Origin: an uncultured Janibacter sp.
GTDB lineage: Bacteria; Actinomycetota; Actinomycetes; Actinomycetales; Dermatophilaceae
Reading direction: 5' to 3'
Assembly (NCBI GenBank): GCA_964430615.1
Contig: CAYSGN010000005.1
Coordinates: 3,395-67,394, forward strand
DNA: 64,000 bases
In this document: piece by piece, positions 1,276 through 48,570 of the stretch
How positions within the stretch are numbered: position 1 is the stretch's first letter
Layout: every line of letters begins with the position of its first letter
Notes under the pieces: generated by a model
Seen by the model: the letters and a program-made list of their open reading frames with translations, nothing else
Databases searched by the model: none
Told to the model about the DNA's origin: nothing
Position numbers and translations under genes: made by a program

Positions 1276-2349
1276 TCAGAGGTGGTGGCCGACGAAGACC
1301 GGCTCGTTGACGAGCGTGACGCCGAAGGCCTCCTCGACGCCGTCGCGGACCTCACGGGCCAGGGCGGCGACGTCGGCGGCCTTCGCGTCCCCGCGGTTGG
1401 TCACCGCGAGGGTGTGCTTGCTCGAGAGGGCGGCGGGCCCGGGCAGGCCGTGCCCCTTGCCGAAGCCGGCCTTGTCGATGAGCCAGGCCGCACTCGTCTT
1501 GACCATCCCCTCACCCGCGGGGAAGGTCGGCGGGACCGGCCCCTGCGGGCCGAGACGCTCTGCGGCGCGCTCGCGCAGCGCATCCATCCGGTCGGCGGGC
1601 AGGATCGGGTTGGTGAAGAAGGAGCCGCAGCTCCACGTGTCGTGGTCGCCGCCGTCGAGCACCATCCCGCGAAGGGAGCGCTGGGCCAGCACGGCCGCAC
1701 GGGCGTCGGCGAGCGGCACCCGCTCGCCCTGCTCGACGCCCAGCTGCCGGGCGAGGTCGGCGTAGGCCACGGGGGCGGACAGGCCGTCCGTCCCGAGGCG
1801 GAAGGTCACCGCGAGGACGACGTGGCGGCCGGTCTCCTTGAACACCGAGTGGCGGTAGGTGAAGCGGCAGTCGGCGTTCGTGAAGGTCACCCGGGTCTGC
1901 TCCTGACGGTCCCAGGCGGCGACCTCGGTGATCGTCTGGGCGACCTCCTGCCCGTAGGCGCCGACGTTCTGCACCGGGGTGGCCCCGGCGAGCCCGGGGA
2001 TGCCGGAGAGGGCTTCGATGCCGGACCACCCCTCGGCGACGGCACGGGCGACGACGTCGTCCCAGACCTCGCCCGCGGCCACGCGCACCTGCACGAAGTC
2101 CGCGCCGGAGGAGACCACCTCGATCCCCCGCAGGGCGACCCGCACGACGGTGCCGGGGAAGCCGTCGTCGGCGATGACGAGGTTGGAGCCCCCGGAGAGC
2201 AGCAGCAGGGCCTCCCCCGCGTCGTCGGCGCTCCGGACGGCCTCGATGACCTCGTCCTCGGTCCCGGCCGTCACCAGGGTCGCGGCGGGGCCACCGACCC
2301 GCATGGTCGTCAGCGGCGCCAGCGGAGCGCCGTGCTCGATCTGCACCAT
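1276..2349 (-). CDS. murB: UDP-N-acetylmuramate dehydrogenase
   Basis: TTMRVGGPA, GGSNL, LSGIPG, GATPVQNVGAYG, SCGSFFTNP and LVNEP motifs; ATG at 2349 overlaps the upstream TGA. Confidence 0.95.
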   Translation of the reverse strand: MVQIEHGAPLAPLTTMRVGGPAATLVTAGTEDEVIEAVRSADDAGEALLLLSGGSNLVIADDGFPGTVVRVALRGIEVVSSGADFVQVRVAAGEVWDDVVARAVAEGWSGIEALSGIPGLAGATPVQNVGAYGQEVAQTITEVAAWDRQEQTRVTFTNADCRFTYRHSVFKETGRHVVLAVTFRLGTDGLSAPVAYADLARQLGVEQGERVPLADARAAVLAQRSLRGMVLDGGDHDTWSCGSFFTNPILPADRMDALRERAAERLGPQGPVPPTFPAGEGMVKTSAAWLIDKAGFGKGHGLPGPAALSSKHTLAVTNRGDAKAADVAALAREVRDGVEEAFGVTLVNEPVFVGHHL

Positions 2350-43833: not shown

Positions 43834-44100
43834 TCAGCAGCAGGTGAAGTGGTCGAGCGGGCTGCGGTCCAGGCCCATCCTGCGGTGCCAGTCGTGGACC
43901 TCGTCGTAGATCACCGGGAGCAGCTCGACGGTGTAGTAGCTCGCCGGGTTGGGCACGCCGAGGGCCTCCGCGAGGACGATGACCCGGAAGAGGTCGTCCT
44001 CGTCCTGGCGGGCCCGGGCGAAGGTCTGACGGTACGGCCCGACGTAGGCCTCACCGATCCCCCGGGCCACCGCCTCCAGGCGGGCGCGCAGCCGCGTCAC
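43834..44100 (-). CDS. Small CstA-associated protein ending in Cys-Cys-stop (CC-star type)
   Basis: 88 aa, LGVPNPASYYTVELLP...HRRMG..SPLDHFTCC*; GTGA coupling to cstA. Confidence 0.8.
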   Translation of the reverse strand: MTRLRARLEAVARGIGEAYVGPYRQTFARARQDEDDLFRVIVLAEALGVPNPASYYTVELLPVIYDEVHDWHRRMGLDRSPLDHFTCC

Positions 44101-45815
44101 CGTCGCTCGCCGGCCCTCTGCGCCTCGGCCGCGGCGATGTCGGCGAGCTCGGCGTCGTCGTCACCCTCGTAGTGCCGTGCCCGACGCATCGCGCCGACCG
44201 ACTCGACGATGACCCACAGGGCCGCGACGAGGATGATGAGGTCGAGCACGAGGAGGAGCCAGTTGCGGTCCGCGTAGAAGGTGCCCAGCTGGATGAAGAG
44301 GGCGTAGATCGTCACGACGCCGACGAAGACGAGCGGGACGAGCGCGGGCAGCGGGCTGCGTCGACGGCGCAGCAGCATGATCGCGATGATCGCCAGGGTG
44401 AGCGCGGCCATGAGCTGGTTGGTCGTGCCGAAGAGCGGCCAGATGAGCATGCCGCCGGACCCGTCCGCGCCGGCCCCGAAGGTCAGCGCGAGCGCGATGC
44501 CGACCGCCAGCAGGGTCGCCGAGGTCTTGCCGAGCCAGACCCCCATGACCTCGCCGATCTCCTGGACGACGAAGCGCTGGAGGCGCACACCGGTGTCCAT
44601 CGTCGTCGCGGCGAAGAGGATCGCCGTCGTGGCCATGACCGTCGCGGCGAGGGACTGCGGCAGCCCCAGCCCCGCCTCGACGATGGCCCCGCCACCGTCG
44701 ACGAAGGCGGTGACGCCTCCGTCGTTGAAGGCCTGGTAGACCGCCTCCCAGTCGGCGAGGGTGCGGAAGCCCGCGGTCGTGGCGACGATCGCGCCCAGGG
44801 CCAGCAGCCCCTCGCCGACCGCGCCGAAGTAGCCGACGAACCGCGCGTCCCCCTCCGTGCCCAGCTGCTTGGAGCTCGTGCCGGAGCTGACCATGCCGTG
44901 GAAGCCGGAGATGGCGCCGCAGGCGATGGTGACGAAGAGGAGCGGGACGATCGACGGGGTACCCGCCGGGACGTCGGAGTTCCAGGCGGGGGCGACGACG
45001 TCGGGACGGGCGATGAGGACCGAGCCGTAGAGGATGCCCAGGGCGATGAAGAGCTGGAGCCCGTTGATGTAGTCCCGCGGCTGGAGGAGCACCCACACCG
45101 GCAGCATCGAGGCGATGCCCGCGTAGACGAAGAGCAGGATGATCCACACCGCGTCGTCCGGCAGGCCCATGACCGTCTCCGGCAGCGCCAGCGGCACCTG
45201 GTCACCGACCCAGATGACGGCGTACAGCGCGACGACGCCGACGATCGAGACGATCGGGAGGTTCCAGTGCAGCCGGTAGATCGCCTGGCCGATGAGGACG
45301 GCGACGGCGAGCGCGCCCCAGGTGGGGATGACGGCGCTCGGGGTGGAGATGAGCAGCCCGGCGATGACCACCGCGAAGGCGGCGTTGACCATGAGGAGCA
45401 GGAGGAAGATGACGACGAGGAAGAGGTTGCGCCCCCGGGCCCCGATGTAGCGACCGGAGAGGGCCCCGATGGACTGGCCCCGGTTGCGCACCGAGGCCCA
45501 CAGGGCGCCGAGGTCGTGCATCCCGGCGAAGAACACCGTGCCGAGCGTCACCCAGAGGAAGGCCGGGAGCCACCCCCAGATGACGGCGACGGCAGGACCG
45601 ACGATGGGTGCGGCACCTGCCACCGACGTGAAGTGGTGGCCCCAGAGGACGTACTTGTTCGTCGGCACGAAGTCGACGCCGTCCTCGAACTGGTGCGCCG
45701 GGGTCGGTCGCGAGTCGTCGAGGGCGTACACCCGCTGTGCGAGGTACTTCGAGTAGAGGAGGTAGCCCGCGATGATCATCGCGACACCGATGGCGGCGAG
45801 CAGCAGGGAGTTCAA
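44097..45815 (-). CDS. cstA: Carbon starvation protein A family transporter
   Basis: DGVDFVPT, GHHFTSVAGAAPIVGP, WVLLQPRDYIN, ACGAISGFH, FGTTNQL; TTG 45815 (MNSLLL) with GGAAGG RBS is preferred over GTG 45830. Confidence 0.9.
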   Translation of the reverse strand: MNSLLLAAIGVAMIIAGYLLYSKYLAQRVYALDDSRPTPAHQFEDGVDFVPTNKYVLWGHHFTSVAGAAPIVGPAVAVIWGWLPAFLWVTLGTVFFAGMHDLGALWASVRNRGQSIGALSGRYIGARGRNLFLVVIFLLLLMVNAAFAVVIAGLLISTPSAVIPTWGALAVAVLIGQAIYRLHWNLPIVSIVGVVALYAVIWVGDQVPLALPETVMGLPDDAVWIILLFVYAGIASMLPVWVLLQPRDYINGLQLFIALGILYGSVLIARPDVVAPAWNSDVPAGTPSIVPLLFVTIACGAISGFHGMVSSGTSSKQLGTEGDARFVGYFGAVGEGLLALGAIVATTAGFRTLADWEAVYQAFNDGGVTAFVDGGGAIVEAGLGLPQSLAATVMATTAILFAATTMDTGVRLQRFVVQEIGEVMGVWLGKTSATLLAVGIALALTFGAGADGSGGMLIWPLFGTTNQLMAALTLAIIAIMLLRRRRSPLPALVPLVFVGVVTIYALFIQLGTFYADRNWLLLVLDLIILVAALWVIVESVGAMRRARHYEGDDDAELADIAAAEAQRAGERR

Positions 45816-45831
45816 GGGAGCGCCTTCCACA

Positions 45832-45884: not shown

Positions 45885-46496
45885 TCACGCGTCCGGTGGA
45901 GGGTCCTCGTCGGTGAACGGTCCGCGGGCGTGCCGGCGCTCCATCTCGAGCAGACGGTGCTTGGCGTCGGGGCCGCCGCGGTAGCCCCCTTCGCTCCCGT
46001 CGCTGCGGACCACCCGGTGGCAGGGCAGGAGCAGCGGCACGGGGTTGTTCGCGCACGCCCCGGCCGCCGCCCGCACGGCGCGCGGTCGCCCGGTCCCGGC
46101 CGCCAGCTGGGCGTAGGTCGCCGTGCGCCCGTAGCCGATCGTCGGCAGCGTGGCGACGACCTCACGGCGGTACCCCGCGACCAGCCGCAGGTCGAGGGGC
46201 ACGTCGATGTCGGTGGCCCGACCCTCGAGGTAGGCGGCGACGGCCCGGGAGGCGGTGTCCAGGCGGGCGGGCGCCCGCAGCACCCGCGGGCTGACCCGTG
46301 CCGCGAGGTCGGCGAGCACGGCGTCGTGGTCCTCCAGCTCGAAGGCGAGGCGCACGACCCCCACGTCGGTGGCCGCCAGCAGCAGGGGGCCGAGCGGGGA
46401 GTCCATCCGCCGGTAGGCCACGTCGAGGATGCCCTCGTCCGCCGCCTTCGTCGCCAGCCGGTCGTGGAGACGGGTGAGCAGGTCCTGGTCGTTCAT
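45885..46496 (-). CDS. ogt: Methylated-DNA-protein-cysteine methyltransferase with N-terminal extension
   Basis: YGRTATY, RAAAGAC..NP, PCHRVV active site. Confidence 0.9.
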   Translation of the reverse strand: MNDQDLLTRLHDRLATKAADEGILDVAYRRMDSPLGPLLLAATDVGVVRLAFELEDHDAVLADLAARVSPRVLRAPARLDTASRAVAAYLEGRATDIDVPLDLRLVAGYRREVVATLPTIGYGRTATYAQLAAGTGRPRAVRAAAGACANNPVPLLLPCHRVVRSDGSEGGYRGGPDAKHRLLEMERRHARGPFTDEDPPPDA

Positions 46497-46957
46497 CGGA
46501 TCTCCTTCGTGCGCAGGGTCTTCAGCCCGTCCGCTGCCGCTCGGCGGGCGGCGGCCTCGCTGCCGCCGACGAGGTCGGCGATCCTCGCGTAGGACAGTCC
46601 CCCGAGGTACCGGTAGGTGACGACGTGGCGCTGCTTGGTGGGCAGCTCGGCGACGTGCGCCCAGACCCCTTCGTCCTCGTGGCGGTCCTCGGTCGCCACC
46701 TCCGGCGGCTCGGCCACCGGGTCCGTGCGGCTGCGCGCACGCGCCCGGTGCACGTCGACGCACTTGCGCCGGGCGACGGTCACGAGCCAGGCCCGCACGT
46801 CCACGTCCTCCGGCAGGTCGGGCCAGGCGCGCAGTGCGGCGAGGAAGGTCTCGCTCCACGCGTCGTCGACGTCGGCGGCCGGCAGCGCGCCCCGGCACAC
46901 GCCGAGCACGAGCGGCCCGTGCTCGCGGACCACCTGGTCGAAGGGGGGCAGGCTCAC
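46493..46957 (-). CDS. ECF RNA polymerase sigma factor
   Basis: DDAWSETFLAA, RAWLVTVARR (region 2); LP.KQR, SYARIA..VG (region 4); 154 aa. Confidence 0.88.
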   Translation of the reverse strand: MSLPPFDQVVREHGPLVLGVCRGALPAADVDDAWSETFLAALRAWPDLPEDVDVRAWLVTVARRKCVDVHRARARSRTDPVAEPPEVATEDRHEDEGVWAHVAELPTKQRHVVTYRYLGGLSYARIADLVGGSEAAARRAAADGLKTLRTKEIR

Positions 46958-46966
46958 CGTGACCCC

Positions 46967-47485
46967 TCAGAAGAGCGCATCGCGCTCCGCCGCCGGCGGG
47001 CGCTCCAGGTCGAGCAGGCGGCGCTTGCGCTCCAGGCCCCCGGCGTAGCCGGTGAGCGACCCGTCGCTGCCGACGACGCGGTGGCAGGGCACGAGGACCG
47101 AGATCGGGTTGGCCCCGACGGCCCGTCCGACGGCCTGGGCGGCGCCTCCGGTCTGCGCCGCGATCTCCCCGTAGGTCGTGGTGCGGCCGTAGGGGATGCG
47201 CTCGAGCAGGCGCCAGACCTCGCGGTGGTGCTCGCCGCCACGCAGGGCGTAGGGGATGTCGAAGGCGCGCCGTCCGCCGCCGAGGTACTCCTCGAGCTGC
47301 TCCGTGAGGTGCGCTAGGAGGGGCTCGTCCGCGAGGGTGACCTCCGGCCCGTGGTCGGCGCCCTGCGGCAGGGTCCAGTGACCGGGGAAGTACAGCCCGA
47401 CGAGGACCGTGCCCGCAGCCGATGTGTCGACGACCGCGGTGAGGTCGCCGAGGCCGGTCGGGAGGGTCGCGTGCCGCATGGTCAT
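46967..47485 (-). CDS. ogt: Methylated-DNA-protein-cysteine methyltransferase
   Basis: IPYGRTTTYGEIA, AVGRAVGANP, VPCHRVV, GYAGG. Confidence 0.9.
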   Translation of the reverse strand: MTMRHATLPTGLGDLTAVVDTSAAGTVLVGLYFPGHWTLPQGADHGPEVTLADEPLLAHLTEQLEEYLGGGRRAFDIPYALRGGEHHREVWRLLERIPYGRTTTYGEIAAQTGGAAQAVGRAVGANPISVLVPCHRVVGSDGSLTGYAGGLERKRRLLDLERPPAAERDALF

Positions 47486-47580
47486 GCTCTCGATCATCGT
47501 CGATCCCGGTGCGAGGTGTACGTCCATGCCCCGTGGACGCGCGGGAGCAGGGTTTCGTGAGATGGGTAGCCTTGCGCGCC

Positions 47581-48570
47581 ATGAGCATCCGCGCATGGCA
47601 GGTCCAGCAGCTCGGTGAGCCCGCCGACGTCCTCACCCTCGTCGACGTCTCGGTGCCGGAGCCCCGCCCCGGGCAGGTGCGGGTGGCGGTGCGCTCCCGC
47701 GCGCTGAACTTCGCGGACATCCTCCTCTGCCGCGGCGAGTACCAGGTCCGGCCGGAGCCTCCCTTCGTCCCCGGTCTGGAGGTGTGCGGCGACGTCCTCG
47801 CCGTCGGCGAGGGGGTCGATCACGTCGAGGTCGGTGACCGGGTGCTCGGGGGGACCGACCTCCCCTTCGGCGGGTACGCCACGGAGTGCCTCATGGAGGC
47901 CGACGCGACCTTCGCGGCACCGGAGGGCCTCGACGACGCCGCTGCCGCGGCGCTCATGGTCAGCTATCAGACGGGGTGGTTCGGGCTGCACCGCCGCGCC
48001 GGCCTGCGCGACAGGGAGCACCTCCTCGTCCACGCCGCCTCCGGCGGTGTCGGCTCGGCCGCCGTGCAGCTGGGCAAGGCCGCCGGTGCGCACGTCATCG
48101 GGGTCGTCGGCGGGGCGGACAAGGTGGCGATCGCCCACGACCTCGGGTGCGACGTGGTCATCGACCGTCGCGAGGAGGACGTCATCGGGCGGGTCAAGGA
48201 GGCCACGGGCGGCCGTGGCGCCGACGTGGTCTACGACCCGGTCGGTGGCAGCGCCTACCAGCAGAGCACGAAGTGCATCGCCTTCGAGGGACGCATCGTC
48301 GTCGTCGGCTTCGCCAGCGGCCGGGTGCCAGAGCCGCGCCTGAACCACGCGCTCGTCAAGAACTACTCGGTCCTCGGCCTGCACTGGGGCCTCTACCGCG
48401 AGCACGACCTGCCTCTGGTGCGCCGGTGCCACGACGAGCTGGTCCGGCTCGCCGACGACGGGCGGATCGCGCCCCTCGTCACCGAGCGCTTCCCCTTCGA
48501 GGAGACGCCGGCCGCGTTCGCCCGTCTGGCCGGGGGCTCGAGCACCGGACGCATCGTCATCGAGGGCTGA
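47581..48570 (+). CDS. NADPH:quinone oxidoreductase-family MDR
   Basis: PFVPGLE, LVHAASGGVGS, YDPVGG, GRIVVVGF. Confidence 0.88.
   Translation: MSIRAWQVQQLGEPADVLTLVDVSVPEPRPGQVRVAVRSRALNFADILLCRGEYQVRPEPPFVPGLEVCGDVLAVGEGVDHVEVGDRVLGGTDLPFGGYATECLMEADATFAAPEGLDDAAAAALMVSYQTGWFGLHRRAGLRDREHLLVHAASGGVGSAAVQLGKAAGAHVIGVVGGADKVAIAHDLGCDVVIDRREEDVIGRVKEATGGRGADVVYDPVGGSAYQQSTKCIAFEGRIVVVGFASGRVPEPRLNHALVKNYSVLGLHWGLYREHDLPLVRRCHDELVRLADDGRIAPLVTERFPFEETPAAFARLAGGSSTGRIVIEG

Follow-up and report, generated by a model that had tools for sequence, protein, structure and literature searches.

The DNA analyzed here, called the window, is a stretch of 64,000 nucleotides from contig CAYSGN010000005.1 of an uncultured Janibacter sp., and the locus of interest in it is a three-gene operon for two alkyltransferases and an extracytoplasmic function (ECF) sigma factor. 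The window has an actinobacterial base composition (73% GC), and its closest relatives were Janibacter species, with 75-79% identity of the sigma factor. The genes are arranged on the minus strand in the order ogt1, ECF sigma, and ogt2. The first, ogt1 (46967..47527), encodes a canonical O6-alkylguanine alkyltransferase (AGT) without an N-terminal helix (PF01035, E value of 3e-33; TIGR00589), with the active-site motif PCHRV at 47089..47075. The second (46493..46957) starts with GTG and encodes a minimal, ECF122-like sigma factor of 154 amino acids (aa) that matches TIGR02937 (E value of 1.7e-17). It consists of sigma2 (PF04542, Sigma70_r2, residues 10-75) and sigma4 (PF08281, r4_2, residues 102-148) only and has neither region 1.1 nor region 3, the composition of the ECF group (group 4). 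Cys20 was invariant in the comparison of sigma orthologues. The third, ogt2 (45885..46496), encodes 203 aa with PF02870 at residues 28-103 and PF01035 at residues 110-187, the two-domain composition of an AGT with an RNase-like N-terminal domain and a C-terminal helix-turn-helix domain. Its PCHRV motif lies at 46011..46025, with the acceptor Cys159 codon at 46022..46020. The sigma stop codon TGA (46495..46493) and the ogt2 start codon ATG (46496..46494) overlap as ATGA at 46493..46496. An earlier sequence-only reading of this DNA had described an ECF sigma between two PCHRV alkyltransferases, the ATGA overlap, and no other anti-sigma gene nearby. The coordinates, the Pfam matches, and the two PCHRV motifs agreed with this description, and none of the eight flanking genes carried an anti-sigma Pfam domain.

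Conservation of the locus was followed in a scan with one genome per species, which gave 80 loci with sigma orthologues of 51-79% identity from Janibacter, Marihabitans, Enemella, Leucobacter, Mycolicibacterium/Mycobacterium, Nocardia, Gordonia, Dactylosporangium, Micromonospora, Streptomyces, Actinoallomurus, Brevibacterium, Arthrobacter, and Citricoccus. Across these more than 14 genera, the sigma gene was directly followed 3' on the same strand by an Ogt2 orthologue (51-71% identity) at 79 of the 80 loci, the 80th being cut by a contig end. At 75 of the 77 loci analyzed, its start codon lay in a 4-nt overlap with the sigma stop (ATGA, GTGA, or TTGA). Because adjacency and 4-nt overlap recur across related loci, the arrangement is, judging from gene order, far beyond chance. 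ogt1 was found 5' of the sigma gene only in some genera and was absent from Nocardia and mycobacteria, so that sigma and ogt2 form the invariant core, and no third gene was kept with the pair across the related loci. A wider, even set of 401 Actinomycetota genomes was searched with sigma and Ogt2 profiles, and the coordinates of the matches were compared. The sigma profile matched 86 genomes (58 of 249 genera), always in single copy, and Ogt2 followed directly 3' in approximately 84 of these 86. At least nine further genomes carried a more divergent sigma (E values of 1e-18 to 1e-25) in the same position, and the share of sampled genomes with the pair was roughly 24%.

Residues P158, C159, H160, R161, V162, N151, Y128, and R142 were invariant in 71 Ogt2 orthologues and E186 was nearly invariant; we take them to be the equivalents of the acceptor Cys, the Asn hinge, Tyr114, Arg128, and Glu172 of the human enzyme. 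Ogt2 looks like a working alkyltransferase in all orthologues. Approximately 27 residues of Ogt2 precede the first strand of the canonical Ogt fold, and within them residues 5-26 (46419..46484, minus strand) correspond to a moderately amphipathic helix (muH of 0.41-0.48), which agrees with the extra N-terminal helix of about 22 aa noticed in the sequence-only reading. L10 and A18 were invariant and L7 and L14 nearly so, and the four residues share one face at 140-220 degrees on the helical wheel. Before the helix, the orthologues have N-terminal stretches of 0 to about 60 residues. Ogt1, Nocardia Ogt3, and canonical Ogts, among them the mycobacterial one linked to adaA-alkA, lack the helix, and the helix-bearing Ogts inspected in the 401 genomes all adjoined the sigma gene or a sigma remnant. 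Three candidates for helix-bearing Ogts without a sigma (L108, L110, and L111) turned out on inspection to be canonical Ogts with spurious alignment extensions. Ogt2 had no match to zf-HC2, RskA, or any other anti-sigma Pfam family and carries a single conserved helix before the AGT fold; it may work like an anti-sigma, yet outside the class I anti-sigmas (ASD/ZAS).

Several loci depart from the common arrangement. A divergent sigma clade (L097-L103, L106, and L107; approximately 30-35% identity) showed the same coupling to a helix-bearing Ogt2. In one genome of the same family as the window (G240, locus L096, G240:C1:342000-347000), ogt1 is followed by a 26-codon sigma remnant, ogt2, and then tag. 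The remnant (approximately 2230-2330, minus strand, MTTPPGPFDRV...EEDS) retains the sigma N terminus and the GTGA overlap to ogt2, and the -35 element of the operon promoter is mutated to TCTCGC. The sigma of this genome has thus undergone a natural internal deletion, and the helix-bearing Ogt2 has been kept. In G148 (L104) and G301 (L105), ogt2 is split over two frames, and the G301 sigma contains an in-frame TGA; the decay of the pair in these two genomes appears to be either joint pseudogenization or errors in metagenome-assembled genomes.

A motif match in the window placed an ECF-type promoter before the operon on the minus strand, with the -35 element TCTCAC at 47557..47562 and the -10 element CGTCCA at 47534..47539, 17 nt after the -35. 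The motif (A/G)TCTCAC(G/A)T-N17-CGTC(T)A preceded the first gene of the operon at 78 to 79 of the 80 loci and in the window, and by this motif the operon promoter is of typical ECF architecture with a CGT-containing -10 element. At 52 loci, the start codon lay 8 to 9 nt past CGTC, which implies leaderless mRNAs, and the operon transcript would be mostly leaderless. The ogt1 start had earlier been placed at 47485. An alternative in-frame ATG at 47527, giving 186 aa, is probably the actual start because it lies exactly 8 nt past the conserved -10, as in the leaderless relatives. In the divergent sigma clade, the promoter reads CTCACA-N16/17-GGTTA, with the -35 kept and the -10 changed, an apparent co-variation of sigma and promoter.

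The whole 3.17-Mb genome was scanned with a position weight matrix for this promoter. The operon's own promoter, with 24.3 bits, was the only strong match, and the next best match at the 17-nt spacer reached 14.4 bits. With spacers of 16 or 18 nt, matches of up to 21.0 bits were obtained, and those inspected look intragenic or atypical. The sequence-only reading had proposed tag (5194..about 5826) as a candidate sigma target. This proposal was not upheld, as the region upstream of tag scored -13.5 bits at best compared to 24.3 bits for the operon promoter, and no other convincing site was found in the genome. In other genomes, additional exact promoter matches preceded further ogt genes, such as the gene for a 169-aa Ogt3 in Nocardia, 2.2 kb downstream. 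The operon also carried additions in other genera, often joined by 4-nt overlaps, namely an AlkB-type oxygenase, a PF09859 oxygenase, a small Ada_Zn_binding protein, and Tag, whose gene lies within the operon or close to it. As far as seen from these promoters and operons, the output of the sigma would be alkylation repair and nothing else.

Two further sites concern the regulon. In Dactylosporangium (L081), an exact match 2 Mb from the operon (G003:C1:7230240) precedes an Ogt1-like open reading frame (ORF) that stops after 105 aa and could be an additional ogt in a truncated or decaying state. In two Nocardia species (G002/G001; L084 and L092), a TCTCACGAC-N-CCGTCTA site at approximately 1501-1529 lies 11 nt before a gene for an Rv2175c-like winged helix-turn-helix protein; it was considered as a target and is doubtful, being kept in the two species but with a different -35 context.

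The Ada_Zn_binding domain (PF02805) was absent from the whole 99.97%-complete genome, in a search that gave matches in control genomes, which supports the earlier description of the system as Ada independent. Ogt1 and Ogt2 were the only catalytic alkyltransferases of the genome. A third PF01035 match outside the window (C73:1696-1872, minus strand) belongs to an alkyltransferase-like protein of approximately 105 aa, in which WWRVV replaces PCHRV and the acceptor cysteine is missing.

The association of such a sigma with an Ogt is already known and catalogued as ECF122. In the classification of Casas-Pastor 2021 (PMC7826278), as covered in a 2022 review, ECF122 is an actinobacterial group of minimal ECFs without an anti-sigma and with an "unknown mechanism," with O6-methylguanine-DNA methyltransferases as conserved neighbors and a Cellulomonas protein, WP_057211282.1, as its model (PMC8999054). 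The window pair fits this group, an assignment that rests on the context description in the review (PMC8999054): the methyltransferase neighbor was present at 79 of 80 loci and in approximately 84 of 86 genomes, and no cognate anti-sigma gene was found. Ogt2 homologues were also found in Cellulomonas, with 63-66% identity. The window locus is no different in kind from ECF122 and represents one more member. A full-text literature search found no experimental study of the sigma-Ogt pair, and a 2023 review of the alkyltransferase family made no mention of sigma factors. To this, the present analysis adds how often the pair occurs, an ogt-only regulon with its promoter and leaderless start, and a helix confined to the coupled Ogt.

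Each lesion uses up one suicide alkyltransferase, which raises the question of how the need for further alkyltransferase is perceived in bacteria that lack Ada. Our tentative reading, put at slightly under an even chance, is that Ogt2 acts as a self-consuming "suicide" anti-sigma whose alkylation frees the co-translated sigma. The best explanation of the locus, possible and held with the same reserve, is that it is a self-contained, Ada-independent alkylation-damage module. From the observed linkage, conservation, and promoter, we infer binding, release, and induction in the following circuit. The sigma would transcribe its own operon, and unalkylated Ogt2 would bind it 1:1 through the N-terminal helix and the body of the protein and keep it off RNA polymerase. 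Repair of O6-alkylguanine would irreversibly alkylate Ogt2 at Cys159 and release the sigma, which would drive the production of more Ogt1, sigma, and Ogt2 until fresh Ogt2 exceeds free sigma. Such a circuit would sense when a single-turnover enzyme runs low and restore it, with Ogt1 as a pure effector; each repaired lesion would free one sigma, and replenishment would be proportional to consumption.

An ECF sigma under positive autoregulation requires a brake. Ogt2 is favored in this role because the sigma is minimal and without a regulatory extension, the promoter is of the ECF type, and Ogt2 is the sole conserved partner in the anti-sigma position. Given the ECF-type promoter, another activator is unlikely to drive the operon. 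Alkylated AGTs are destabilized, lose the contact between the N- and C-terminal domains, and are degraded (PMC10779285). Taken together, these points make the model of sequestration and release the best supported one.

The search with a concatenated sigma-Ogt2 sequence found more than 10 fused ORFs in the protein collection (P0002-P0011; L093-L095), several of them with a frameshifted region 4. They come from metagenome assemblies, with names that look like long-read data. At the junction of the best of them, ATGA and a Shine-Dalgarno sequence were retained, and one relative had internal compensating frameshifts. They were rejected as Rosetta-stone evidence, as these retained junction signals and the garbled region 4 make assembly indel artifacts probable; single-base indels yield fused calls because no stop codon interrupts the ogt2 frame ahead of its ATG. 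Such ORFs could mislead domain-architecture surveys.

Two of the fused ORFs were used for AlphaFold2 (AF2) modeling as tethered proxies for sigma plus Ogt2. The models reached a predicted template modeling score (pTM) of 0.74 and a predicted local distance difference test score (pLDDT) of 83.9 for P0003 (model 1), and a pTM of 0.71 and a pLDDT of 86.1 for P0004 (model 2). The two linkers were disordered, the share of disordered residues was approximately 13%, and the conserved helix had a pLDDT of 80-98. By our own arithmetic, the Ogt2 part alone is worth only about 0.45-0.5 of the pTM, so that the higher values indicate a confident predicted placement of sigma2, sigma4, and Ogt2 relative to one another. 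The Ogt2 part matched M. tuberculosis OGT with template modeling (TM) scores of 0.82-0.88. The sigma of model 1 resembled the anti-sigma-bound ECFs (5WUQ, 5UXX, and 4CXF), with TM scores of 0.71 for SigW-RsiW, 0.77 for RpoE-NepR, and 0.68 for CnrH-CnrY, compared to 0.31-0.44 and a root mean square deviation above 20 Å for holoenzyme-bound forms. In these predictions, the compactness is reproducible between the two models and the geometry is not; the models are supportive, short of decisive. The view of Ogt2 as an anti-sigma and alkylation sensor, put forward in the sequence-only reading, therefore held in part: the conserved coupling, the helix found only on sigma-linked Ogts, the lack of another conserved partner, and the compact fusion models speak for it, and the disagreement of the two AF2 geometries speaks against it.

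Further points weigh against Ogt2 as a releasable anti-sigma. The seemingly natural fusions are probably assembly frameshifts, the AF2 alignments contained just 6 paired rows, and the modeled chains were fused ORFs of relatives, not the proteins of the window. The sigma of model 2 matched neither class of known structures (TM scores of 0.32-0.41), so the closed geometry was not reproduced. Co-translation at 1:1 means that induction would require differential turnover. A single helix is, to our knowledge, no known anti-sigma domain. Overlaps of 4 nt are common in high-GC operons. The helix-bearing Ogt2 of G240 is kept despite the loss of the sigma. Counted in favor of the anti-sigma is the joint decay of sigma and ogt2 in two genomes.

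The persistence of Ogt2 in G240 would also fit a sigma that is a dedicated ogt activator with Ogt2 merely as its main target, an explanation that we regard as rather unlikely. The sigma would then be set by an unlinked regulator, by turnover, or by its own modification, for example at the invariant Cys20, and the helix would serve Ogt2 itself in stability, DNA binding, or oligomerization. The promoter and regulon evidence requires just a sigma and its targets, the 4-nt overlaps are common in actinobacteria, and ECF122 is listed without an anti-sigma (PMC8999054). However, without a brake a positively autoregulated ECF sigma would be either bistable or locked in the on state, the pair has no other conserved partner gene, and the helix is confined to the co-translated Ogt and is missing from the co-regulated Ogt1 and Ogt3. 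The AF2 models, moreover, set Ogt2 confidently against the sigma in both fusions, a predicted contact that argues for Ogt2 as more than cargo. A still different role for the pair would be the constitutive housekeeping operon, in which the sigma provides growth-phase or general-stress expression and no damage is signaled. This is very unlikely, as the single-operon regulons are made only of alkylation-repair genes and the absence of any Ada sensor points to a damage-specific circuit.

Methylated E. coli Ada activates transcription by contacting sigma70 region 4 and the C-terminal domain of the RNA polymerase alpha subunit and is thus a precedent for an alkyl-accepting protein that touches a sigma factor. 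In the same way, alkylated Ogt2 might bind the sigma or RNA polymerase and switch transcription on. The linkage, the helix, and the catalytic conservation apply equally to such a co-activator, and AF2 model 2 is compact in a predicted form unlike the known inhibited sigma conformations. This possibility is nevertheless quite improbable, since alkylated AGTs are destabilized and degraded rather than stabilized (PMC10779285) and ECF sigmas require no activator at their cognate promoters. The predicted model 1 also shows an anti-sigma-like, closed sigma, and sigma/anti-sigma pairs typically show this gene order and coupling. Release of the sigma from Ogt2 upon alkylation remains the preferred reading.

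Read in this way, the system would combine Ada-like logic with ZAS-like wiring and by analogy would stand outside both families, because Ogt2 has no anti-sigma domain and the genome has no Ada sensor domain. As with E. coli Ada, the irreversible self-alkylation of a repair protein would induce ogt/ada, alkB, and alkA/tag genes under autoregulation. Ada differs in sensing methylphosphotriesters through its Zn-Cys4 N-terminal domain and in being an AraC-type activator that works with sigma70, whereas here the O6-alkylguanine acceptor domain itself would be the sensor, with an ECF sigma as the output. With the ZAS pairs (RsrA-SigR, RshA-SigH, and ChrR-RpoE), the system would share a cytoplasmic anti-sigma that is co-transcribed with an ECF sigma and inactivated by cysteine modification, and an autoregulated sigma. 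The anti-sigma domain of the ZAS proteins, in contrast, has four helices and an HxxxCxxC zinc site, and these proteins are modified reversibly; Ogt2 has the AGT fold plus one helix, and its modification would be enzymatic, lesion dependent, and irreversible. The adaA-alkA-ogt operon of M. tuberculosis and M. smegmatis is likewise an inducible actinobacterial alkylation-repair operon that contains an Ogt, but this Ogt (L111) lacks the N-terminal helix and the regulation is of the AdaA type and not by an ECF sigma. The canonical Ogt 4BHB was the closest solved structure to the Ogt2 orthologues (TM score of 0.87, 39% identity). CnrY (class II) and NepR are very short helical peptides that clamp sigma2 and sigma4. 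The likeness of the sigma to their targets was predicted in model 1 only (TM scores of 0.68-0.77) and was absent in model 2, and these peptides have neither an enzyme body nor the covalent sensing proposed for Ogt2.

Within its group the locus is unremarkable, and the group hides a plausible new anti-sigma class. If the proposal is true, this class would be structurally new, an enzyme whose catalytic event is the signal, and the sensing of DNA damage would follow a new logic in which lesions are counted stoichiometrically. In roughly a quarter of Actinomycetota, the main adaptive response independent of Ada would then be of this kind. The proposal would also explain a catalogued ECF group that occurs in approximately 24% of the genomes sampled, among them Nocardia, Mycolicibacterium, Streptomyces, and relatives of Arthrobacter. 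The leaderless promoter TCTCAC-N17-CGTC makes the hypothesis directly testable by reporter, and the promoter, the sigma, and the helix-bearing Ogt could serve together as an orthogonal biosensor for alkylating agents.

The genes flanking the operon in the window include those for CstA, an 88-aa protein without a Pfam match, an ArsA-like ATPase, a Zn-dependent dehydrogenase, and LysR. The first three follow 3' of ogt2 on the minus strand (43834-45830) after a 54-nt gap, and no terminator was predicted in the gap between ogt2 and cstA. They were rejected as operon members, since cstA follows ogt2 in this window alone and other Janibacter lack this order as well; a gene of the phosphotriesterase family takes the place after ogt2 in Janibacter sp. 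GS2 (L003). On the other side of the operon, the divergent gene on the plus strand for a Zn-dependent dehydrogenase/quinone oxidoreductase probably starts with the ATG at 47581 (MSIRAWQVQQ), not with the upstream GTG at 47509. This ATG is only 18 nt from the -35 element of the ogt operon promoter, and the two divergent promoters must therefore overlap.

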